From: Escherichia phage UPEC03
Length of the DNA stretch: 64,000 nt
Sequence record: MW250785
Strand: one strand, 5' to 3'
Shown here in pieces: positions 16,292 to 63,930 of this stretch. The translations under genes were made by a program, and so were the position numbers. Position 1 is the first letter of the stretch, and every line of letters begins with the position of its first letter. The notes below the pieces were generated by a model. That model worked only from the letters and a program-made list of their open reading frames with translations. It ran no database searches and had not been told where the DNA came from.

Positions 16292-17348
16292 TCAGAGTCC
16301 CGTGAAAGCTACAACGATTTGATAGTGGTCATCGAAGAATTCCCCTTGTCGTTGTACGACCTCATGTAAGGGCATCCAGAACGCCTCTAACGCATCGTCA
16401 GAACCGCCCATAATGCGGGGCAGACTACCATCATTGTTAGGCTCTAACTTGATGTACTGCGCCACAGTCGGTTTTGAGAAGTGTACGGAACGCTTCGGAT
16501 GATCGAACAACATCGAATTGCGGATTGAACCACGGATAACCTTTTCAGGAACCTTGATCCGTACCTCTTCGAGCAGTTCGCGGATCGCACAATCCAGGAA
16601 CGTTTCATTTGCGTTTTTGTGTCCGCCGGGAAGGGCTAACGCGTCTTTACCTGGGGCGAACTTACGACGAATTACCAGCAGGTGATTGTTGCACACAACC
16701 ACACTATCACCCGTGCAACAGTTTAGCGCGTCGGGGTATGGGTAGTTTTTGAATTTCTCCAATTCGCTTTCCCATTTCTCGTATTCGTAGAATAAACGCC
16801 AGAACGTGTCTTCCATCATCCATTTGTCGATATAATCAACGGTTGCTTGAGGAACAAAGCGCAACAGTTTCTTATCCCACCCGTTTTTATGGTTAAAGAT
16901 AATCGGACGCAGATCGGTTGCTGATAGATCCTTGCCGTTAATCTGGACAGGTGGAACTGGTACGTGTGTCCATCCGAACGCTTTAAGCCAGTATGAACCT
17001 GCATCTTTTTCGTAACCGTAGATAGCGATTTTGTCGCCTTTGGTTTCCCTGATAGCAGTACGAACAGAGGTTTTCCATTTCTCTTCGTTGTAAAGATAAT
17101 CTGGAATGTGCTCAAACTGAACACGAACAACATCTTCGATCGGGAAGTTAGCGTTTAACCATGAGAAGATCATGGTTTGACGCTCACGCGCCGTCAGCGG
17201 GTTTAAAACGTTAGGGTAAGCATATGCTGAACCCAGAAGGATGTAAACGATCTTTGCTTCTCCGAGTGCTTTACGCACCATTGCTGCATGACCATTATGG
17301 AAGGGTTGGAATCTGCCAATTACGACAGCTTTATCAAATTGTTTCATA
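16292..17348 (-). CDS. natV: Bifunctional NMN adenylyltransferase / Nudix hydrolase (NatV-like)
   Basis: N-terminal cytidylyltransferase motif GRFQPFHNGH; C-terminal Nudix box GGHKNANETFLDCAIRELLEEV; ATG at 17348 with GGAG SD (listed start is GTG). Confidence 0.8.
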
Positions 17349-17520
17349 ACGTGCTCCACGTTTAAAGGTTAATCATAAAACAGACGCAATCACCAATACA
17401 CCAAGAAAACCGCCAATAAAGCCGAAGAATAGCGAAATGAAGATAGTAAGGATGATCTGTTTTATGTTCATTGTAGTATTCTCGTTCGGAGAAAGCCCCC
17501 GCTCTGGGGGCTTTAAACCC

Positions 17521-18447
17521 TTATTTACGAGAATCGAAAATCACTTTACCAGCGTAATCAGAACCCATGACAGTTTGAGGTACACCGCCCTGATATTTTT
17601 CCGCGATGGTCTGCTGAACATCAAGTTCTTTCCAGCGAATCATTTCTGGTGTAATGGTACGCTGCAACACGGCGTTCGCTTCGGCTTCTTTCTTAGCCGC
17701 ATACAGACGGGCATCAGCATCACGCTCGTTAGCCTGTGCAGCATTGCTACGGGCTTCTTTATCGGCAATTGCCTGAACAACTGCCTGTTGAGCGATTTGC
17801 TCTTTACGTGCCAGTTCTGCTTTCTCTGCGTTCACCTGTTCTTCACGAATTTTCGTGTTTTCAACCTGCTTCTTGATCGCTTCCGGCAGGTCGATATCCT
17901 GCAAGAATACCTGTTTCACGGTGTAACCGTAAGGGCGGGCATACTCTTCAACTTCCTGCTGGATCGCGATCTGTAGCTGGCTTTGAACTTCTGCATTATA
18001 CAGATCCTGTGCTTTCGGTACAGATTTACCGAACTCACGGACAGTTGACAGAAGTTTTTCAGTCACATATTTATCCAGCGCCTGATCCTGACTACCCGCA
18101 TTGATACGGTTGATCGGGGCTTTGCTACCATCGAACTGTAACATCACGGTCATATCCACAGTGGATTTGAATTTATCCTGGGACGGAACCTGCAATTTGT
18201 CAAACTTCATTGCGATGTCTTTGGTGTTGAACACCTCGAAATCAGCCAGTGGATTTACCAGGTGGAAACCAGGCAGAACAGGCTTCGGTGAAACTTTACC
18301 CATGAAGGTTTGAGTTTTTACCGTACCATCCTGAACGATAGTGTACGAGTTCGGAACCAGCCACAGAGCGGCGATTACGCCCAGAGCGATCAGTGTGGTT
18401 TTCTTCGGGTTGTTTACGATAGTGTTTAAGTTCATCATTATTTCCAT
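17521..18447 (-). CDS. SPFH / Band 7 (prohibitin, HflC/K-like) membrane protein
   Basis: N-terminal TM segment LIALGVIAALWLV, SPFH-like core, A/E/K/Q-rich coiled-coil C-terminus. Confidence 0.7.
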   Translation of the reverse strand: MEIMMNLNTIVNNPKKTTLIALGVIAALWLVPNSYTIVQDGTVKTQTFMGKVSPKPVLPGFHLVNPLADFEVFNTKDIAMKFDKLQVPSQDKFKSTVDMTVMLQFDGSKAPINRINAGSQDQALDKYVTEKLLSTVREFGKSVPKAQDLYNAEVQSQLQIAIQQEVEEYARPYGYTVKQVFLQDIDLPEAIKKQVENTKIREEQVNAEKAELARKEQIAQQAVVQAIADKEARSNAAQANERDADARLYAAKKEAEANAVLQRTITPEMIRWKELDVQQTIAEKYQGGVPQTVMGSDYAGKVIFDSRK

Positions 18448-54648: not shown

Positions 54649-55512
54649 ATGGCATATCAAACAGGTAAAAAATTGATTGACGTGGGGCAGATCGGCAACC
54701 CGTCAACTGGTGATCCGCTGTATGACGGCGGTGTTAAATTAAACGAAATGGTAACGAACATATACAACGCATTTGGTGATGTTCGTCTGCTTAGTGCTAA
54801 TAATGGCGTTGGTACAATGTTGCTTCACGCGACTGGTTATTATCAAAAGCTGCCTCGCACATATTATTCAGGGAACCCGATCGAATTGGGTTCTTTGCAT
54901 GATATGGATACTTCTACAGGGCCGATTACAGTTGTTCTCCCTACGGGTAAGTTAGGTGAAGGATGCTATTTCATAAATAGTAACGGTAGCGTTTCTGTTG
55001 ATCGCCCTATTGTTTTCCGTCCTCAAGTTGGCGATGGAATTACGGGAGTACAGGATCAGCTTTACGTGACCTCCCCGTATACCCGCGTTATGCTGTGGTG
55101 TACGAAGAAAGAGGGTTCAGTAACTACATGGGATTATTCAGTAGAATCAATGTTCGGTTCTAAAACAATGCCCGTTGACGCTACCAAACTAATTTTGAAA
55201 GCATCATCTACCGCAATACCGTTATTTGGTTACAGTGAGTTCAGCGGCGCGAAACTTCTCGTGTATGCTGAAAATATGAGAGGTACAGTCACTAAAATGG
55301 CTGAAATTCTGTTAGGCGTGGATCGTGTCGCTCGAAATGTGTATTCAACTGAATATGCAGTATTGAAAAACAGCGACGATGATATGTACACGCTAAACTT
55401 CACTGTTGGCGCTGGTGATGTGGTATATGCTAACGTTCAATCCAAACTCGAAGATCGTATTAAGTTTACGATTAAAGCGATTGACACCATTAAATCAGGG
55501 ATCGCAGCATGA
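54649..55512 (+). CDS. 9: Baseplate wedge / long tail fibre attachment protein gp9
   Basis: KKLIDVGQIGNPSTGDPLYDGGVKLNEMVTNIYNAFGD...HATGYYQK parallels T4 gp9; 287 aa. Confidence 0.8.
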   Translation: MAYQTGKKLIDVGQIGNPSTGDPLYDGGVKLNEMVTNIYNAFGDVRLLSANNGVGTMLLHATGYYQKLPRTYYSGNPIELGSLHDMDTSTGPITVVLPTGKLGEGCYFINSNGSVSVDRPIVFRPQVGDGITGVQDQLYVTSPYTRVMLWCTKKEGSVTTWDYSVESMFGSKTMPVDATKLILKASSTAIPLFGYSEFSGAKLLVYAENMRGTVTKMAEILLGVDRVARNVYSTEYAVLKNSDDDMYTLNFTVGAGDVVYANVQSKLEDRIKFTIKAIDTIKSGIAA

Positions 55513-57326
55513 AACAAGAAATTATTATTGGTAACGTGGTTGATGACGGCGCTGGCGATTACTTACGCCGTGGTGGTCAAAAGACAAACGCGAACTTTAC
55601 CGAACTTTACAACAAGCTGGGTGATGGGGAAATCCCTCACCCAGCGGGTGCATGGAAAACGCATTCAGCCCCTACGCTATCCCCTATTTTCGGTGATTCG
55701 TGGGCGCTGAATACAAGTAACAACCGTATTACTGTAAACCTCCCTAAAGGCGGCGTAAGCGATTATAACAAGGTTATTCGTCTACGTGACGTATGGAGTA
55801 AATGGGCTACCAACAACGTGCGTCTGATTCCTGCAAGCGGAGACACCATTAAAGGTTCCCCGACTTACAAAGAATTGTACAAAGATTTCATGGATGTTGA
55901 ATTGGTTTATTGTTCTCCTGGTCGCTGGGAATATGTCGAAAACAAACAGATCGACAAAATCACTACTTCGGATCTTGCAACCGTATCAAAAGAAACGTAT
56001 ATCGCTACACAGGGACAGACAGACTTTCCTAACGTATTTGGCCCTAATAACTCGTATAACGTCCGTGCTTTGGAAGTTTACTATCGCGGTAACTTGCTGT
56101 ACATCGACGACAAAAACGGCTTTGTAGAGGCAAACAGTGATTACGGTTCGCCTGGTGCTAGCGCCGGACAACTGGTAGATCTGGATGGGGTGAATATTCG
56201 CCTCAAACGTCCGTGTAACGCTGGTGACACGCTTCAATTCGTTACCTATCTGGATGGTATTGCCGCATGGCGTTCGACGTATGAGGCGCATACTATGCGC
56301 GTATACAACACAGGCGACACCGAACAGGTTAGTGTTCCTGGCGAAATCTGGGTTGGTGACTTGTCAACCAAACGCGAATTCACCAATGCCGAGTTCGGGA
56401 TCAGTCCTCGTATTCTGGTAAACCCTAACTCGTTTGAACTGCTGCTTAACGGTCGTCAACTGGTTAAAGCTGGTGATGCGGATCTCCCGACCTTTACGTG
56501 CGAAGGGGCACAAGGTTACGATGAATCAAGCTGTTTGGCTAACTCCGGTGCGTGGGTTCCCTCTGGACAGGACTACAGCCTAATTTTCGTTGATTCTATT
56601 GTAACTGGTATCAAATTCGCTCAACCTCTGGAAACTCGCGATGTCGTAACAATTCGTTGGTTCAACAATGATATCGGTACGGTGATGGAATGGGACGGTG
56701 TAGGCGGTATTAAAGAACATACTGATAAGATTTATCTGAACAACGAAGAAGAAGTTGTTCTGGTGAATCAGATTGAATATACCGATTACAACAACCCGAC
56801 ACAGAAAACCGCTCGAAAAGTAGCCGATACCTTTACTGGTCGTCTGCTGGATCTGCAAGCGTTCTTTGATGTGATTCACCCGATTGGGACAATCTACGAA
56901 AACGCACACAACGACGCGAACCCAGGCGATTATATGGGCTTTGGTATCTGGACACGTTATGCCGAAGGAATGTTCCTTGCTGGCTGGACTACCGATGAAG
57001 CCGATAGTGATTTTGGTCTGAATAATAACGATCTGGATGGTTCCGGTCAACCAACTCATACTTCTGGTGGCACTGGTGGCGAACGTGGTTACGAAATCAA
57101 ACCGATCAACGTTCCTCAAATTCAGTCAACCGATAAGGTTCTGATTAAAGACGCGAACGGGATCATTATTATCGGGGGCTGTCAGGTTGATCCTGATGCG
57201 AAGGGGCCAGGTTACACTAAATACCGCGAGGATGTAATTAAAGTAAATCAGGGTAACACTACCCCCGATAAACTTAGAACGCTCCCGCCATATATTACTG
57301 TTCATCGCTGGATAAGGGTAGCATAA
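55509..57326 (+). CDS. 10: Baseplate wedge / short tail fibre attachment protein gp10
   Basis: MKQEIIIGNVVDDGAGDYLRRGG...ELVYCSPGRWEYVENKQIDKIT...YITVHRWIRVA closely parallels T4 gp10; 605 aa. Confidence 0.9.
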   Translation: MKQEIIIGNVVDDGAGDYLRRGGQKTNANFTELYNKLGDGEIPHPAGAWKTHSAPTLSPIFGDSWALNTSNNRITVNLPKGGVSDYNKVIRLRDVWSKWATNNVRLIPASGDTIKGSPTYKELYKDFMDVELVYCSPGRWEYVENKQIDKITTSDLATVSKETYIATQGQTDFPNVFGPNNSYNVRALEVYYRGNLLYIDDKNGFVEANSDYGSPGASAGQLVDLDGVNIRLKRPCNAGDTLQFVTYLDGIAAWRSTYEAHTMRVYNTGDTEQVSVPGEIWVGDLSTKREFTNAEFGISPRILVNPNSFELLLNGRQLVKAGDADLPTFTCEGAQGYDESSCLANSGAWVPSGQDYSLIFVDSIVTGIKFAQPLETRDVVTIRWFNNDIGTVMEWDGVGGIKEHTDKIYLNNEEEVVLVNQIEYTDYNNPTQKTARKVADTFTGRLLDLQAFFDVIHPIGTIYENAHNDANPGDYMGFGIWTRYAEGMFLAGWTTDEADSDFGLNNNDLDGSGQPTHTSGGTGGERGYEIKPINVPQIQSTDKVLIKDANGIIIIGGCQVDPDAKGPGYTKYREDVIKVNQGNTTPDKLRTLPPYITVHRWIRVA

Positions 57327-57991
57327 TGAAACAACAATTTATTTCCAAAACAAGGGAGGGGGCGAAAGTCCCTTCCCGCGAAGCAGATTTTTTACAATAT
57401 GAAATGGGTACGAAAGACCCTTTGATTGGTGGTAAACGTACTATCGGCGGCGCTAACGTCGATCAGCTTCGCAAAGGGGTTGATTATCCTAACGTACAAT
57501 CAGCAATCGACGATCTATATTCTTTATCTCAGCAGATCCCGATTAACGGGGTGATTATGATGACCGAAGATAGTCCGCCGTCTGCTGTTCAGCAAGTAGA
57601 AACAATTAAGTTTGGCGGTGCGGTATTAAACCCAGACCCGGATCAGACAAAAGCAACTATTCACGTATACGGATTCCCATTTGTATTCGATAATACAACT
57701 AACGCATCAAGTGTGTGTGAAGAAGTATATAACACCTTTAACGATTTTGTTACCCATGAAAAATATTTCGATTTGGTGACTCGTAAAGGGCTTAACGGGG
57801 AAATGCTGGAAGTTCGTTTTATTGATGCAGTTCCGCATCCGGTAACTAATAAAACAGAAAACGGTATTTCTATGGTCGGTACGATCGACGTTCAGGCTAA
57901 ATCTGGTTATGGCACATGGTCGAAATTGGGTGAAGTTGATTTGGCAGTCACACCAACAATTCCGATCTACTATTTCCAGCGTATTGCATAA
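57326..57991 (+). CDS. 11: Baseplate wedge subunit gp11
   Basis: 221 aa (T4 gp11 is of similar size); position between gp10 and gp12. Confidence 0.65.
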   Translation: MKQQFISKTREGAKVPSREADFLQYEMGTKDPLIGGKRTIGGANVDQLRKGVDYPNVQSAIDDLYSLSQQIPINGVIMMTEDSPPSAVQQVETIKFGGAVLNPDPDQTKATIHVYGFPFVFDNTTNASSVCEEVYNTFNDFVTHEKYFDLVTRKGLNGEMLEVRFIDAVPHPVTNKTENGISMVGTIDVQAKSGYGTWSKLGEVDLAVTPTIPIYYFQRIA

Positions 57992-58000
57992 GGATAACAA

Positions 58001-59392
58001 ATGAGTAACAACACAATTAACCACGTAAGCGATGCGTCCGTTTACGTGACTTTTGATCCTACGGGTACGCAATGGCCTAGCACGTATAAAAACGTCCAAC
58101 AGGCTCTTTCTGTTATCGGTAGTTGGGCGCGTACTGATGTTGGCTTGCCTGTTGCTGCTCCTGGCTTCCGTGGTATAGCCGCTATCGCGACACAGGCGCA
58201 AATTGACGCTGGTACTGATAACACAACGATTGTTACCCCTGCATTGCTGCAATATCGTTTACAGAACCCTCATGCGTCACAAATCGTATGGGGGTACACT
58301 CGCTATGCAACTGATGCTGAATCGGTAACTGTTTCGAACGATCTGGTAACTATTACCCCTCGTTCGTTGAATTACGTGTTCAATAACAGAAAATCAACAG
58401 AAACCGTGTGGGGTTCTGCTAAACTGTCAACTACTGCTCAGGCAACGTCCGGCACTGATGACACAACCGCAATGACTCCGCTTAAAGTTAAACAGGCGAT
58501 CTCTGCTCTGGTTCCGGTACAATCCAACGCAACAGAAAGTTCGTTTGGTTTGGTTCAGTTGGCTACCGTCGCAGAAGTCCGCGCAGGTACAATCCGTGAT
58601 GGATTTGCGATTTCACCATACACGTTTATTCGTCTGACTGCAAGCGAAAGCGATTTAGGTTTACTCCGCATCGCTACCCAGGCAGAAGTAAACGCGGGTA
58701 CTGATAATACCAAAGTGATCACCCCGCAAAAACTTGCGGCTGTTAAGGGTTCCGGCTCTGCTTTCGGTATGGTTAAATTATCAACAGAAATCAATACTGG
58801 ATTAGCAAACACCGCGTTATCTGCTGGTGCAAACGTTGTTCCGAGTAACCGAAACAGTGCGATCACTGGCGGTGCATTGTATCAGGGTTCAATTACTGCT
58901 GACAATAAATACCAGACAAAGACTGATGTTGACGCAAATATCCCGATCGGATGCATGATGCTTGCTGCATTCAACTCCGATGCAGGAAACCTGTTTATCT
59001 GTAACGGTCGCTCATTAAGCACGACAACTTACGCAGATCTGTTTGCCCGTATCGGGTACACGTATGGTGGTTCAGGCGGTACTTTCAACCTCCCAGATAT
59101 GCGCGGTGTTGCTGCTCGCGGATTTGATGCTGGACGTGGTTTAGACCCAGGTCGCGGGTTTGGTACTTACCAGGAAGATATGTATGAATCTCACGGACAT
59201 GATCTGGAATTGATTTATAACAATGGTGGTAACATTCCAAGAAGTCAAGCGATTTACGAACTGAAAGGCGCAGAAAAGAATGACCAACGAGTTATTCATT
59301 TCGACAACCGCTATACCCGTGCGCTTCCTAATGGCGGCACAGAAACACGAATGAAAAACGTTGCGGTCAACTATGTAATTCGAGTACGATAA
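58001..59392 (+). CDS. 12: Short tail fibre protein gp12
   Basis: 463 aa; repetitive A/T/G-rich shaft; C-terminal NLPDMRGVAARG and HGH motif as in the gp12 receptor-binding domain. Confidence 0.7.
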   Translation: MSNNTINHVSDASVYVTFDPTGTQWPSTYKNVQQALSVIGSWARTDVGLPVAAPGFRGIAAIATQAQIDAGTDNTTIVTPALLQYRLQNPHASQIVWGYTRYATDAESVTVSNDLVTITPRSLNYVFNNRKSTETVWGSAKLSTTAQATSGTDDTTAMTPLKVKQAISALVPVQSNATESSFGLVQLATVAEVRAGTIRDGFAISPYTFIRLTASESDLGLLRIATQAEVNAGTDNTKVITPQKLAAVKGSGSAFGMVKLSTEINTGLANTALSAGANVVPSNRNSAITGGALYQGSITADNKYQTKTDVDANIPIGCMMLAAFNSDAGNLFICNGRSLSTTTYADLFARIGYTYGGSGGTFNLPDMRGVAARGFDAGRGLDPGRGFGTYQEDMYESHGHDLELIYNNGGNIPRSQAIYELKGAEKNDQRVIHFDNRYTRALPNGGTETRMKNVAVNYVIRVR

Positions 59393-59403: not shown

Positions 59404-61434
59404 ATGATTTCAAAACTTAACCCGTTACCTAAGATCCCGTTTGTTGATGGAGTCCCTACGGACTCCACGCAAACAAAGATCCAATGGATTATTAACGGCG
59501 AAACTCTCAATGGTGCAAACACCAAAACCACTAATGAGGGTTCATTAAACAGAAGCGGTGTTATGGTTCAACAGAACGCCGTGCAACTGGAACAAAACAC
59601 AACTACACAGACATCGAAGATCAACGAAGTCATTGATCAGGTTAACCTCATTAGTGAAAACCTTGCCGCAATCTCTGATGAAAGTGTAATTGAAAAACTG
59701 GATCAGGTTGTTTCTGATGTAGCAGTTCTTAAAGTCGATATGACTGGTGTTCAGAGTACCTTAGCAGGTCAAGTGCTCAAAGTACAGGACATTGAAAAAG
59801 AAATTGGTGTATGGGATTCGACAACCGATCCTAAACACCGCACGATCCGTAAAGATATCATTTTCCTGAAAGGTGAAATGGGCGCGTATCCGGGCTTTAA
59901 CGAAAACGGTGATGTAGATCCTTCGTCTACTGGCTCCGGCATGAAATACAAAATCATGACGAACGCACAGGCTATTTCTATTCACGAAGGGCGTATTACC
60001 CGCCTCGAAGATGATTGGGCTAACTCAGACGTAGGACATCTAACCGATGAAGTGACCGATCTGCGTAACGAAATGGGGCCGAAACATTTGGCAACCTTCG
60101 AATCCGTATACGTGCGCTTAAATGGCATTGGGACGCGTTTAACTGGTATCGATAACGAACTGACAAGCATCAACCAGTATATCGGTCGTAGCGGTTCTGG
60201 TGGCACTGGTAGCATCGTTAACCGTATGAGTGTAGCAGAACAGAACATCGTTACTCTACAAACTCAGGTAAACGATCCTGTTGTTGGTGTTCTTCCTCGC
60301 GTGATCCTGCTCGAAAGTTCTGTTGGTAACTCTCAGGTTCCTGGCAGTATCCGTTATGATATCAGTACCATGAAGCGTGACATTGGCGATCTTAGTATGA
60401 TTGTTGGTGAATCAAGCGACGATGGACTGCGCGGAGAAATGGCGCAGGTATTGACGGATATCGGTACTGACGTACAGCCAACGAGCATAAAAGGCCGTAT
60501 TCTGAACCTGGAAAACACCCAGCGTGACGATCATCAATCACTCGTTGATGTTACTGCAATTGTTGGTAATACATCGTCTGGTCTGGTAGCTGCTAATATC
60601 GCGATGGGTAAAGCCGTCTACGGTGATGCAGCAAGTTCCGATCCGTTCCTGAAAGACGGTATTCAGAAAACTGCTCGCGATAGTAAAGCTGCAATCGGCG
60701 TGAACACTACTGGTTCTGAAACTGGTTTGTATAAACTGATTTCCGATCTGACTGCTCGCGTTGCTGCTCTTGAAGGTGGTTCTGGTGGTGATCTCGCGGC
60801 CCGTGTTACCGATCTGGAAAACAACAAAGCATCACATGATGACGTTGCGGCGGCTCTGGTTCCATATATCACAGAAGTTGAAGCAGACGCGAAATATGTT
60901 GCAAAAACTGTTCCTCTGGTGTTCGATCAGAACATTTCTGGAAACAGTAATTACACCGAAGGAAACACAATTTCGTTCAGCGTAGTTGTTTCAGGTGGCG
61001 CTACCCCTTACACTTACCAGTGGAAGAAAGATAACGTCAACGTAGGAACTGATAGCGCAACATTCTCTAAAGCTGGGGCAACCTCTGCTGATGATGGTGT
61101 GTACAAAGTTGTCGTGACTGACGCGGAAAATACTGTAATTACTTCCAACGAAGTGACTGTTACCGTTTATCCGGCGCTGACACTAAGCACTGATATTGCT
61201 GACGTTACTGTAACTACTGGTGATCCATTAACGCTTCATGTTGTGGCAACTGGTGGTAAAGCTCCATACGCGTATCAGTGGAATAAAGACGGTTCTGATT
61301 TGACTGGTGAAACTACAGATACTCTGACAGTAGCAACGGCGGCAAGCGAAAACGCTGGCGTGTACTTTGTTTCTGTTCTGGATGACCTGGGTAATTCCAT
61401 CGAATCAACTCACGCAACCGTTACGGTTCAATAA
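59404..61434 (+). CDS. wac: Fibritin (wac, neck whiskers) with two C-terminal Ig-like domains
   Basis: N-terminus LPKIPFVDGVPTDSTQTKIQWIINGETLNGANT parallels T4 fibritin; long coiled-coil; C-terminal tandem repeats GGATPYTYQWKKDNVNV / GGKAPYAYQWNKDGSDL. Confidence 0.75.
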   Translation: MISKLNPLPKIPFVDGVPTDSTQTKIQWIINGETLNGANTKTTNEGSLNRSGVMVQQNAVQLEQNTTTQTSKINEVIDQVNLISENLAAISDESVIEKLDQVVSDVAVLKVDMTGVQSTLAGQVLKVQDIEKEIGVWDSTTDPKHRTIRKDIIFLKGEMGAYPGFNENGDVDPSSTGSGMKYKIMTNAQAISIHEGRITRLEDDWANSDVGHLTDEVTDLRNEMGPKHLATFESVYVRLNGIGTRLTGIDNELTSINQYIGRSGSGGTGSIVNRMSVAEQNIVTLQTQVNDPVVGVLPRVILLESSVGNSQVPGSIRYDISTMKRDIGDLSMIVGESSDDGLRGEMAQVLTDIGTDVQPTSIKGRILNLENTQRDDHQSLVDVTAIVGNTSSGLVAANIAMGKAVYGDAASSDPFLKDGIQKTARDSKAAIGVNTTGSETGLYKLISDLTARVAALEGGSGGDLAARVTDLENNKASHDDVAAALVPYITEVEADAKYVAKTVPLVFDQNISGNSNYTEGNTISFSVVVSGGATPYTYQWKKDNVNVGTDSATFSKAGATSADDGVYKVVVTDAENTVITSNEVTVTVYPALTLSTDIADVTVTTGDPLTLHVVATGGKAPYAYQWNKDGSDLTGETTDTLTVATAASENAGVYFVSVLDDLGNSIESTHATVTVQ

Positions 61435-61439
61435 TTAAT

Positions 61440-61459
61440 AAGGGGCGAAAGCCCCTTTT
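61440..61459 (+). terminator. GC-rich GAAA-loop hairpin with T-run, followed by SD (repeat of element at 3187-3206)
   Basis: AAGGGGC-GAAA-GCCCCTTTTGAGG identical to 3187-3210. Confidence 0.4.
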
Positions 61460-61468
61460 GAGGATCAT

Positions 61469-62392
61469 ATGATTACTAACAACCCTGAACAACTGAAAGA
61501 TGAAATTCTTCGTCGTCTGGGCGCACCAATCATCAAAATCGAAATCACACAAGACCAGATTTATGACTGTATTCAACGTGCTCTCGATTTATACGCAGAA
61601 TATCATTACAACGGTACGAACAAAAGTTATATTATTCTGACACTGGGCGAAGATAACCCACGTAACGTTTTCGATTTGAGCAAAGAGCATATTTTCGCGA
61701 TCACAAAAGTATTGCGTACAAACATGGGTTCACTGACCACGATGGACGGTACAGCGGTTTATCCGTGGTTTACCGATTTCCTGATGGGGCTTACTGGTGG
61801 TTCTCTGGGCGGTCGCTGTGCATCAAGCGTGTACGGTATGAACGCATACGGGGCTGATATGGGTTACTTTACCCAGATGATGTCTTATCAGCGCTCAATG
61901 CAAGATCTGCTGGCTCCGCTGCCTGATTACTGGTTCAACGATGATACTGGTCAGTTCTGCGCGTGGGGGCAGGTGAACAACGGCGATATTCTTGTTCTCG
62001 AAGCGATGGTTCGTTCCTTCGTTGATGTTCCTAGCTCCGTAGGAAGCATCGCAGGATACGCTACGGCGGGTTCTAACGCAGTGGAAGACCAATCCATAGC
62101 CGACATCTACGATAACCCTTACAACAGCGTTGTGGGCGGTGTACGCGCGGGACAGGGTTCAACTGTTACGGGCGGAACGTCCGCATATAACAACCGCTGG
62201 GTAAAAGACTACTCTACAGCGCTGGTGAAAGAGATCAACGGACAAATTCTGGCTAAATTCCAGGGGATGCAATTGCCTGGCGGTGTTTCTCCAGATGGTA
62301 CGCGATTAATTCAGGAAGCAGAAACCAAACTGCAAAGTCTGCGCGATGAACTGATTTCGATGTCTGACGCAGTACCGATCATTATGGTGTAG
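61469..62392 (+). CDS. 13: Neck protein gp13
   Basis: 307 aa (T4 gp13 is of similar size); follows wac. Confidence 0.6.
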   Translation: MITNNPEQLKDEILRRLGAPIIKIEITQDQIYDCIQRALDLYAEYHYNGTNKSYIILTLGEDNPRNVFDLSKEHIFAITKVLRTNMGSLTTMDGTAVYPWFTDFLMGLTGGSLGGRCASSVYGMNAYGADMGYFTQMMSYQRSMQDLLAPLPDYWFNDDTGQFCAWGQVNNGDILVLEAMVRSFVDVPSSVGSIAGYATAGSNAVEDQSIADIYDNPYNSVVGGVRAGQGSTVTGGTSAYNNRWVKDYSTALVKEINGQILAKFQGMQLPGGVSPDGTRLIQEAETKLQSLRDELISMSDAVPIIMV

Positions 62393-62400
62393 GGGGAATA

Positions 62401-63147
62401 ATGCAAAACTGGGATGAAAGTTTATTCGCTCAGTTGTCTACGGGGGAAGGGGTTGATCGCAACTTAAAGGATCAGGTCACTAACCCGTATGTAAACTGGT
62501 ACAAATACAACCCGACACAACAGCTACACGATTCACTGACAGCAGAATCAATCCAGATGAAATCGCCTGATATGTATTACGTCCGGCGCGACTTCGTGAA
62601 TATTGATAAGATCCTGGGCGAAGACCGAGAATCCAAATTTACGAAGTCATGGAAAATTGCTGCATATATTGAATCGTATGCCAACTATGAAGGACAACGA
62701 GATTTCTTTAGTAAATTTGGTCTGAGTTCAAACGATGAAATGACGCTGGTAATTAACCCTCGTTTGTTCGCACATCAAACTGATGGTGGTATTCCTGTTC
62801 TGGGGGATCTGGTTTATTTCCCTATGGACAATAGCCTGTTTGAAATTACGTGGGTAGAAGCCGATCCGTTCTATCAGTTCGGTGATCGTCCTCAACGCAA
62901 AATCAACCTTGCGAAATTCATCTACACAGGTGAAGAACTGGCTCCTGAATTGCAGCGAAATGAAGGAATCCACATTGAACCTGATGCAGAACTGGATCTC
63001 GAACCGATTCGAAATCTTGACGGGCTGGCTGATATTAACATTGAACAGTACGAAGAAGACAAAGAATTTGAAAGAGAAGGTGATGAATTCATCGAATCTT
63101 TTGATGTTGTCAACGGACGCGGTTCACCGTTTGCAAGTCTGCCATAA
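62401..63147 (+). CDS. 14: Neck protein gp14
   Basis: 248 aa (T4 gp14 about 256 aa); follows gp13. Confidence 0.6.
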   Translation: MQNWDESLFAQLSTGEGVDRNLKDQVTNPYVNWYKYNPTQQLHDSLTAESIQMKSPDMYYVRRDFVNIDKILGEDRESKFTKSWKIAAYIESYANYEGQRDFFSKFGLSSNDEMTLVINPRLFAHQTDGGIPVLGDLVYFPMDNSLFEITWVEADPFYQFGDRPQRKINLAKFIYTGEELAPELQRNEGIHIEPDAELDLEPIRNLDGLADINIEQYEEDKEFEREGDEFIESFDVVNGRGSPFASLP

Positions 63148-63156: not shown

Positions 63157-63930
63157 ATGGGTATAGGCGGAAGTCTATACCCTCTTCGAAGAGGATTTTA
63201 TGATATGGTTGCAAAAATCTCTATAGAACAAAGAGAACATCAATTAAAAGAACGTTGTGCGGAATTAGAACTATCTTTTGATGGATGGGTAGACCAATCA
63301 GCGATCACAAAATATTCAAAGTTTTATGTTGTTTGCAGTAAAGGACATAGAACAGAAAAACAGATCAAACCATTTGTCAACAAAAGTCGTCCAAACGGAT
63401 GTTATTTGTGTTCCCCTAAGATGAAAATATCAAAGGAAAACAGAATCAAGGAAATCAAAACTCTTACAGATTCAATTGGATATACATTCATAGATTTCGT
63501 TGGGGTGTATAAAGATGCACACACAAAAATATCAATGGTTTGCGATAAAGGCCATAATTGGGATGTAAGTATAGTTGCTTTTCTCAATCAAGGTCATCGC
63601 TGTAAAAAATGCGCAACGTCTGGGTTCAATCCGAACAAACCAGCATACGTATACGTACAATCACTATCTGGAAAATTTCTGAAATTTGGGATAACCAACA
63701 GAACACCAAAGAAAAGAATGTGTGCGCAATCAAATAAATCCGTTTATAAACACGAACTGGTTTATCAAAAATTATTCGATAAAGGTATTGATGCAATGAG
63801 TATTGAACAGAAGATCAAACAATCTCTTATTTGTGGCGTAGTTGATAAATCAGATATGATGGATGGATATACAGAAACAACAGATATATCCAATTACGAT
63901 AAACTGTTGAATATTATAGAAGGAGTATAA
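63157..63930 (+). CDS. AT-rich zinc-finger protein, possible homing endonuclease (GIY-YIG-like motif in C-terminal half)
   Basis: CSKGH...CYLCS and CDKGHNW...CKKCATSG pairs; KPAYVYVQSLSGKFLKFGITNRTPKKR resembles GIY...YIG...R; codon usage unlike flanking neck genes; start may be internal ATG at 63205. Confidence 0.4.
   Translation: MGIGGSLYPLRRGFYDMVAKISIEQREHQLKERCAELELSFDGWVDQSAITKYSKFYVVCSKGHRTEKQIKPFVNKSRPNGCYLCSPKMKISKENRIKEIKTLTDSIGYTFIDFVGVYKDAHTKISMVCDKGHNWDVSIVAFLNQGHRCKKCATSGFNPNKPAYVYVQSLSGKFLKFGITNRTPKKRMCAQSNKSVYKHELVYQKLFDKGIDAMSIEQKIKQSLICGVVDKSDMMDGYTETTDISNYDKLLNIIEGV

Follow-up and report, generated by a model that had tools for sequence, protein, structure and literature searches.

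The gene wac of Escherichia phage UPEC03 (MW250785), which we examined within a 64,000-nucleotide (nt) stretch of the genome (hereafter the window), encodes a fibritin, the protein of the neck whiskers or collar fibers, and is of the RB43 type. Specifically, its C-terminus carries two tandem domains, predicted to be immunoglobulin (Ig)-like beta-sandwiches of the Hoc kind, at the position where T4 fibritin has its foldon. Both domains belong to a set of cassettes that occur in zero to five copies among homologous fibritins, and they are under purifying selection. We consider it probable that they form arms at the free tips of the whiskers and serve there in weak accessory adhesion.

The wac product comprises 676 amino acids (aa) and exceeds T4 fibritin (487 aa; 2bsg_A) by 189 aa, close to the excess of about 190 aa given in the initial annotation, which had been made from the sequence alone. 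The two tandem C-terminal repeats reported there, quoted as GGATPYTYQWKKDNVNVGTD...VYKVVVTD and GGKAPYAYQWNKDGSDLTGE...VYFVSVLD, were both found in the translation, and the interval proposed for them, 60900-61434, was right to within four codons, starting 13 nt upstream of the first domain and ending at the stop codon. A hidden Markov model (HMM) built from the two repeats placed the domain boundaries (Table 1) and gave each domain a length of roughly 87 aa; domain 1 and domain 2 were 42% identical to one another (BLASTP, E = 6e-14), a resemblance well above chance. Three Pfam families of the Ig clan matched above threshold, each with two stretches: Ig_3 (52.1 bits; cutoff 30), I-set (32.8 bits; cutoff 23.7), and Ig_2 (32.9 bits; cutoff 27). 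The strongest stretches lay within domain 2 (Ig_3, aa 600-656; I-set, aa 595-673), and a short match to the Pfam SprB repeat fell on a GGxxPYxYQW motif of the Ig region. No Big-family profile was among the 13 Pfam families that matched the wac product at E <= 1. Hence, the repeats are Ig-like, as first described, and a domain search does return I-set, but their assignment to the bacterial Ig-like (Big) class was ruled out, the matches being to Ig-clan families and the short SprB motif.

Searches beyond Pfam connected the same region to phage surface proteins. Residues 492-676 fell into PHROGs families of Hoc-like head decoration proteins (down to 6e-42), and the nearest solved structures by sequence were an "Immunoglobulin-like domain protein" (9ncf_S, 7e-37) and a "Tail protein" (9c2d_S, 1e-27). 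Further matches among solved structures were the decoration proteins 8zvi and 5lxk (aa 589-675) and the siphophage "neck whiskers protein gp24" (9occ), while RB49 Hoc (3shs) matched aa 517-668 at 1.1e-06. Using tblastn with the whisker Ig domains against a phage collection, we recovered 1661 records in which the matching proteins bear Hoc-like, tail, or major-tail annotations, and the module was ~40-45% identical to proteins of T5-like and FelixO1-like phages. Within the window, a six-frame HMM scan exposed no other open reading frame (ORF) with the same Ig domain.

An AlphaFold2 model of aa 440-676, computed as a monomer from 57 aligned sequences of fibritin homologues, had a mean predicted local distance difference test (pLDDT) of 88.2, and in it the repeats formed two all-beta sandwiches with block pLDDT of 94-98. 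When this model was searched against the PDB with Foldseek, tandem Ig structures (MALT1, LRIG1, titin, Robo, MuSK, and contactin) matched at probability 1.00, and RB49 Hoc (3shs) stood at rank 14 (3.4e-11). The template modeling score reached 0.74 (normalized to the target) for Ig2-3 of Robo2, and root-mean-square deviations to the contactin and titin tandems were 3.0-3.7 A. Against BFVD, an identical 676-aa entry came first, followed by phage decoration, tail, and Hoc proteins. Given the all-beta domains and the tandem Ig matches, a fold other than the beta-sandwich, the outcome that would have spoken against Ig-like repeats, was not what the predictions returned. No cysteine occurs in aa 504-676, and the canonical Ig disulfide between strands B and F is thus absent; cysteine-free Ig-like domains are usual in phages, and the disulfide is not needed for the fold. 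On these predictions, the two C-terminal domains are I-set/Ig_3/Ig_2 beta-sandwiches of the Hoc type.

The remainder of the protein is a fibritin. The gene lies between gp12 (short tail fiber) and gp13 (neck protein) in a T4-type morphogenesis block with the order gp10-gp11-gp12-wac-gp13-gp14, which was also found in the phages EC-W2, Margaery, and phi5 and in the contigs L006 and L007. Its product matched PHROG 1056 ("fibritin neck whisker") at 8e-172, and in phmmer aa 9-455 aligned continuously with aa 7-453 of T4 fibritin (2bsg_A, also 3j2o_A; E = 1.1e-46). The N-terminal neck-attachment domain (~50 aa) was recognized by its PFVDG...ISWIKNGE region and by matches of the 1ox3 and 2ibl fragments to aa 9-73. 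A segmented coiled-coil shaft is predicted by homology to T4 fibritin, and Pfam Fibritin_C covered aa 373-488 with 70.8 bits (cutoff 21). By analogy with T4, the wac product would form a trimeric fiber on the virion neck.

The alignment with T4 fibritin stops at T4 aa 453, just ahead of the foldon, and the window protein continues with a linker made up of a Gly/Ser hinge, a helical stretch of ~30 aa, and, at aa 488-501 (nt 60865-60906), the motif YITEVEADAKYVAK. In the AlphaFold2 model the linker was represented by short helices with pLDDT of 60-69. The motif YITEVEADAKYVAK bears a weak likeness to the first half of the T4 foldon, with a local score of 27 against 18.4 +/- 3.7 for shuffled sequences, 3.5% of which reached 27. 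We compared the window protein with its 120 best fibritin homologues and found the YITE-EAD-KY motif in 116 of these 121 sequences, while the Trp hairpin of the foldon (DGxW; DGEWV in T4) was absent from all 121. A T4 foldon kept upstream of the Ig domains was ruled out by the end of the alignment at aa 453, the weak half-match, and the missing hairpin. Because the alignment ends before the foldon and the DGxW hairpin is absent, the Ig domains replace the foldon rather than being appended to it. Thus, two C-terminal Ig-like domains are present, as originally claimed, but not as a simple extension of a T4-type fibritin, and the protein lacks the C-terminal foldon beta-hairpin of the T4/JS98 type.

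At the DNA level, wac was most similar to the genes of EC-W2 (97.9% identity; coding sequence ECW2_0273, in the same gp12-wac-gp13 context) and vB_EcRAM-01 (97.7%), and was 93-94% identical to those of phi5, EcL22g, EC-F1, and EC-F2. All six of these phages infect Enterobacter cloacae (complex), and EC-W2 and phi5 are classified as Pseudotevenvirus. With C-terminal Ig-like domains on a fibritin of the RB43/Pseudotevenvirus lineage, the wac product is an RB43-type fibritin from a Pseudotevenvirus (RB43 group) phage.

Among the homologues, protein length tracked the number of Ig domains exactly. Proteins of 462 and 493 aa had none, those of 571-587 aa had one, 663-679 aa two, 759-770 aa three, 851-853 aa four, and a length of 941 aa corresponded to five. 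When single domains were clustered at 55% identity, they resolved into cassette types with characteristic orders: A-B in proteins of 676-679 aa (the named members being from Klebsiella and Cronobacter phages), A-B-C in the RB43-like 762-aa proteins, A-B-C-D at 851-852 aa, A-B'-C in metagenomic proteins of 759-763 aa, A-B'-C-D at 852-853 aa, C alone at 571 aa, and C-D at 675 aa. The window protein and its closest relatives have A-B'. Its domain 1 grouped with the first domain of all two-, three-, and four-domain relatives (type A) and its domain 2 with the one at the second position in the metagenomic A-B'-C relatives; among isolates, B' was restricted to the six Enterobacter cloacae phages. 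The two window domains shared 38-42% identity with one another, whereas the identity of each to its positional counterpart in relatives was 62-77%. This excludes that the repeats arose by recent tandem duplication and indicates that they are old, position-specific cassettes.

The difference between A-B' and A-B'-C proved to be a single clean indel. In the DNA alignment with the A-B'-C contig L006, it falls at the conserved TVTV strand, where the window reads ...ATVTVQ-stop and L006 runs on with ...ATVTVPPVLAFTTDL... through a third domain to ...CTVTVA-stop; after the stop codon, both have the same hairpin AAGGGGCGAAAGCCCCTTTT, the ribosome-binding site, and the gp13 start. A degraded third domain downstream of the wac stop in the window was ruled out, the gap to gp13 being just 34 nt long and containing the conserved hairpin. 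Each Ig domain opens with a P-L-x-F-T/D strand and closes with TVTV, and since the domains share these ends, in-register recombination at short repeats is a plausible mechanism of cassette gain or loss, in either direction. Two homologues lacked Ig domains altogether. One of them, P0049 (493 aa; L007, 4001-5482), ends right after the motif YYTKVESDAKF in a region of full gp10-gp15 synteny, and its existence indicates that the Ig module is not obligatory for the fibritin of the broader group. The other, P0042 (462 aa), breaks off abruptly at ...ALESGNRW, possibly as the result of a frameshift or truncation.

The Ig module also marks a change in sequence divergence. Megablast matches to 39 further records, from phages of Citrobacter, Cronobacter, Klebsiella, Enterobacter, and Escherichia, extended no farther than ~nt 1481-1484 of the gene (aa 494), where the Ig module begins. 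In a binned comparison with Margaery and Kp_GWPR59, identity dropped from 70-90% in the shaft to 53-70% across the Ig region and was 80-95% in gp13, such that the module, lying below both the shaft and gp13, constitutes a local divergence hotspot. We estimated the ratio of non-synonymous to synonymous substitution rates (dN/dS) by the Nei-Gojobori method; relative to phi5, it was 0.16 for the Ig part (0.13-0.19 for both domains) and 0.035 for the shaft. In the comparison with EC-W2, the Ig part had six synonymous and no non-synonymous differences (dN of 0). The Ig part is therefore under purifying selection. Diversifying selection on the Ig domains was not supported by ratios of 0.13-0.19, though non-synonymous change has been faster than in the shaft.

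Comparison with known systems places the window protein closest to published RB43-type fibritins, with which it shares its clade, gene position, N-terminus, shaft, and Ig-like domains at the foldon position. The 762-aa proteins of this type, from phages of Citrobacter, Cronobacter, and Enterobacter, show 75-77% identity to the wac product and have domain 1 (type A) in common with it. The fibritins reported previously bear one (KP15) or three (RB43) Ig-like domains, as reviewed by Letarov & Krisch (2013; PMC3797505, citing Letarov et al. 2005 J Bacteriol 187:1055), in contrast to the two (A-B') of the window protein. T4 fibritin (2bsg, 3j2o, 1ox3) shares with it the homology over aa 9-455, the gp12-wac-gp13 locus, and the segment equivalent to helix alpha11, but ends in a foldon of ~27-30 aa in place of the 48-aa linker and two Ig domains. 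Hoc (RB49, 3shs; T4, 5vf3) has the same kind of Ig domain as a string of beads and, as in fibritins, the number of Ig repeats varies among Hoc-like proteins (PMC12609058). However, Hoc is a monomer with N-terminal Ig domains and is anchored by a C-terminal capsid-binding domain (ESRNG motif), while the Ig domains of the window protein are C-terminal and its anchor would be a neck-attached coiled coil, presumably trimeric as in T4. The Hoc capsid-binding domain is absent from the wac product, in which only the Ig part matches Hoc, and full-length T4 Hoc (5vf3) was not among the matches.

EC-W2 also encodes a Hoc homologue (17207-17707), of 167 aa, that carries the capsid-binding domain of T4 Hoc (T4 aa 293-362, with ESRNG) at its N-terminus. 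This 167-aa protein had no Pfam Ig match, and when the whisker Ig domains served as tblastn queries, only a single locus of the EC-W2 genome matched; together, these results indicate that in the window lineage it is the whisker, rather than Hoc, that bears recognizable Hoc-type Ig arms. Outside the fibritins, the closest sequence relatives are the Ig-bearing decoration and tail proteins (9ncf_S, 9c2d_S, the T5-type 5lxk, and the C-termini of major tail proteins), which are likewise surface exposed but differ from the wac product in carrier protein and virion position. The Bas63 whisker system, considered as a further relative, is unrelated to wac.

For the function of the Ig domains, we favor weak accessory adhesion. 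A conserved neck-binding N-terminus and a trimeric coiled-coil shaft like those of T4 gpwac would carry a tip module, composed of the short linker and the two Hoc-type Ig sandwiches. Ig domains are autonomous monomeric folds, so each trimeric fiber should display three two-bead arms, probably flexible and, judging from typical Ig domain size, ~8 nm in length. These arms would bind weakly, multivalently, and reversibly to carbohydrate-rich surfaces, either host envelope polysaccharide or mucus-type polymers, and such adhesion may raise the rate at which the long tail fibers encounter their receptor, as proposed for Hoc and RB43 fibritin. They would thus be an optional add-on to the whisker, outside the assembly core.

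The targets of this adhesion, the host surface or mucus, are suggested by analogy. An accessory-adhesin role that draws the virion near the host surface has been proposed for Ig-bearing fibritins (PMC3797505), and adhesion to glycans or mucus, as put forward in the initial annotation, is accordingly a reasonable hypothesis already present in the literature. The Ig domains of T4 and RB49 Hoc have been reported to attach to Escherichia coli surfaces (PMC10385173), and T4 Hoc to bind intestinal mucus (PMC13370021). These reports, the range of zero to five copies, the Ig-less variant in synteny, and the occurrence of the module on surface proteins of unrelated phages all favor a free, optional role in surface display. 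Moreover, the low dN/dS of the Ig part relative to phi5 and the lack of non-synonymous differences from EC-W2 indicate that a function is maintained.

A different function, which we hold to be unlikely, is that the Ig arms are the tail-fiber-handling end of the whisker and, in RB43-type phages, do the task assigned to the C-terminus in T4, binding the long tail fiber near its knee during attachment and holding a retracted, non-infective state in poor conditions. Ig domains commonly bind proteins, the foldon is missing and another element occupies the tip, and older T4 work puts the contact between fibritin and tail fiber in the C-terminal moiety (PMC3797505). However, a T4 cryo-electron microscopy preprint (10.64898/2026.03.06.709160) located the contact of the long-tail-fiber kneecap (the gp35 domain resembling a carbohydrate-binding module) at fibritin helix alpha11 (aa 361-386), that is, on the shaft and not at the C-terminus. 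The equivalent segment is kept in the window protein, ~120 residues ahead of the first Ig domain, and by analogy would be the tail-fiber docking site in this phage as well; docking at the shaft in T4, along with retention of this segment, supports a free C-terminal end. A fixed docking geometry is also hard to square with zero to five domains on near-identical shafts, and the same Ig type is present on capsids and tail tubes of phages without such fibers.

Returning to weak accessory adhesion, several points weigh against it. The ligand is not predictable from sequence, and Ig domains serve protein-protein contacts as often as glycan contacts. The AlphaFold2 model, being a monomer, is silent on the trimer and on the position of the arms relative to the long tail fiber, and the Ig-less P0049 comes from one metagenomic contig and is 58% identical. 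Finally, according to Letarov & Krisch (PMC3797505), a small foldon drives folding in T4 and JS98 fibritins only, while non-T4 fibritins, RB43 included, need expanded C-terminal domain sequences for folding and trimerization, whereby the C-terminal module would gain a structural role.

The same requirement underlies a second alternative, improbable in our view, in which the C-terminal module acts mainly in folding: for a coiled-coil trimer without a foldon, it would set the register or nucleate assembly, or else serve as a cap that aids solubility or stability. The conserved YITE-EAD-KY motif directly ahead of domain 1 is consistent with this. Against it, no trimerizing activity is known for Ig domains, which fold as monomers; both the types and the number of domains can be exchanged (A-B, A-B', C alone, C-D); and one homologue, which lacks any Ig domain, stops immediately behind the conserved motif, making the linker motif, rather than the Ig domains, the candidate registration element. 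Lastly, it is very improbable that the Ig domains are promiscuous, easily transferred passengers without a specific phage function that are tolerated at a free end: the module is indeed scattered over many unrelated structural proteins and the shared TVTV-coding end of every domain makes gain and loss mechanically easy, but both domains are under purifying selection, 119 of the 121 sequences keep an uninterrupted reading frame, and domains at equivalent positions are orthologs in different genera.

Table 1. Coordinates of wac, its parts, and neighboring genes in the window.
Feature	Position	Strand	Residues	Basis
wac (fibritin, neck whisker/collar fiber, RB43 type)	59404-61434	+	676 aa	ORF list, PHROG 1056, T4 2bsg
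N-terminal neck-attachment region and predicted segmented coiled-coil shaft	59428-60768	+	aa 9-455	phmmer to T4 fibritin; Fibritin_C
Equivalent of T4 helix alpha11 (T4 aa 361-386)	60487-60564	+	aa 362-387	T4 alignment
Linker at foldon position (Gly/Ser hinge, helical stretch, motif YITEVEADAKYVAK)	60769-60912	+	aa 456-503	Homologue comparison, AlphaFold2
Predicted Ig-like domain 1, cassette type A	60913-61173	+	aa 504-590	Pfam Ig_3, I-set, Ig_2, SprB motif; AlphaFold2 pLDDT >= 94; domain clustering
Predicted Ig-like domain 2, cassette type B'	61174-61431	+	aa 591-676	Pfam, 5lxk/8zvi matches, AlphaFold2 pLDDT 95-98; clustering
GC-rich hairpin and T run AAGGGGCGAAAGCCCCTTTT, between wac stop and ribosome-binding site/ATG of gp13	61440-61461	+		Pattern scan
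gp10	55509-57326			
gp11	57326-57991			
gp12	58001-59392			
gp13	61469-62392			
gp14	62401-63147			

The hairpin AAGGGGCGAAAGCCCCTTTT is likely a terminator or RNA-stability element. It is kept in L006, directly behind the longer wac gene, and a terminator is annotated at the matching position in Citrobacter phage Margaery. Upstream of wac, identity to phi5 fell to 61-78% in two 90-nt bins in the C-terminal part of gp12 (59134-59313), with 90-97% in the adjoining bins and mostly >90% in the rest of the region; this local mosaic patch in the distal short tail fiber is possibly of relevance to host range. Additionally, an ORF of 257 aa follows gp14 (63157-63930, + strand), with a GC content of 0.34-0.36 compared with ~0.46 in its flanks, a match to the Pfam CapR homology domain (8e-18), and a hint of a treble-clef zinc finger. 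EC-W2 and L007 have no ORF at the gp14-gp15 junction, and L006 has a different, NUMOD3-like ORF of 204 aa there; the junction resembles a hotspot at which mobile genes of the homing-endonuclease type insert.

Since Ig-bearing RB43-type fibritins have been published (PMC3797505) and the GenBank record of phi5 tags the wac orthologue as "neck whiskers protein; lg_3; wac", the finding is known in kind. Its weight as a discovery is small, Ig domains on RB43-type fibritin having been reported in 2005, according to the 2013 review, and accessory adhesins discussed in that review (PMC3797505). The layout described here is correct but ordinary, A-B' being one more copy-number variant, seen in six sequenced Enterobacter phages. 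The additions to the published picture are modest: the series of zero to five cassettes, the clean A-B' versus A-B'-C indel, and the divergence hotspot under purifying selection. Publications about vB_EcRAM-01 and about Klebsiella phages from related genera contain no discussion of the whisker Ig domains. The orthologue is entered as a "hypothetical protein" in MN508622.2 (EC-W2) and OL551674.1 (vB_EcRAM-01) and as a "tail fibers protein" or "major tail protein" in other relatives, an inconsistency of annotation rather than of biology, and correcting the two entries left as hypothetical is where the practical value lies.

Beyond annotation, the natural series of zero to five domains could be used to probe the effect of whisker Ig domains on adsorption kinetics, mucus retention, and host range, for which therapeutic Enterobacter, Klebsiella, and Cronobacter phages offer a setting. 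The whisker tip may even be understood as a cassette array (the four recurrent types A, B or B', C, and D, and rarer ones) rather than a clade-specific, fixed module, with zero to five beads that are added, dropped, or reordered in register at the conserved first strand (P-L-x-F-T/D) and at TVTV, and possibly as a combinatorial organ of recognition, an idea to which we give a low probability. If the cassettes do differ in ligand specificity, the whisker tip would be a second organ, beside the tail fibers, for the combinatorial recognition of host or habitat.

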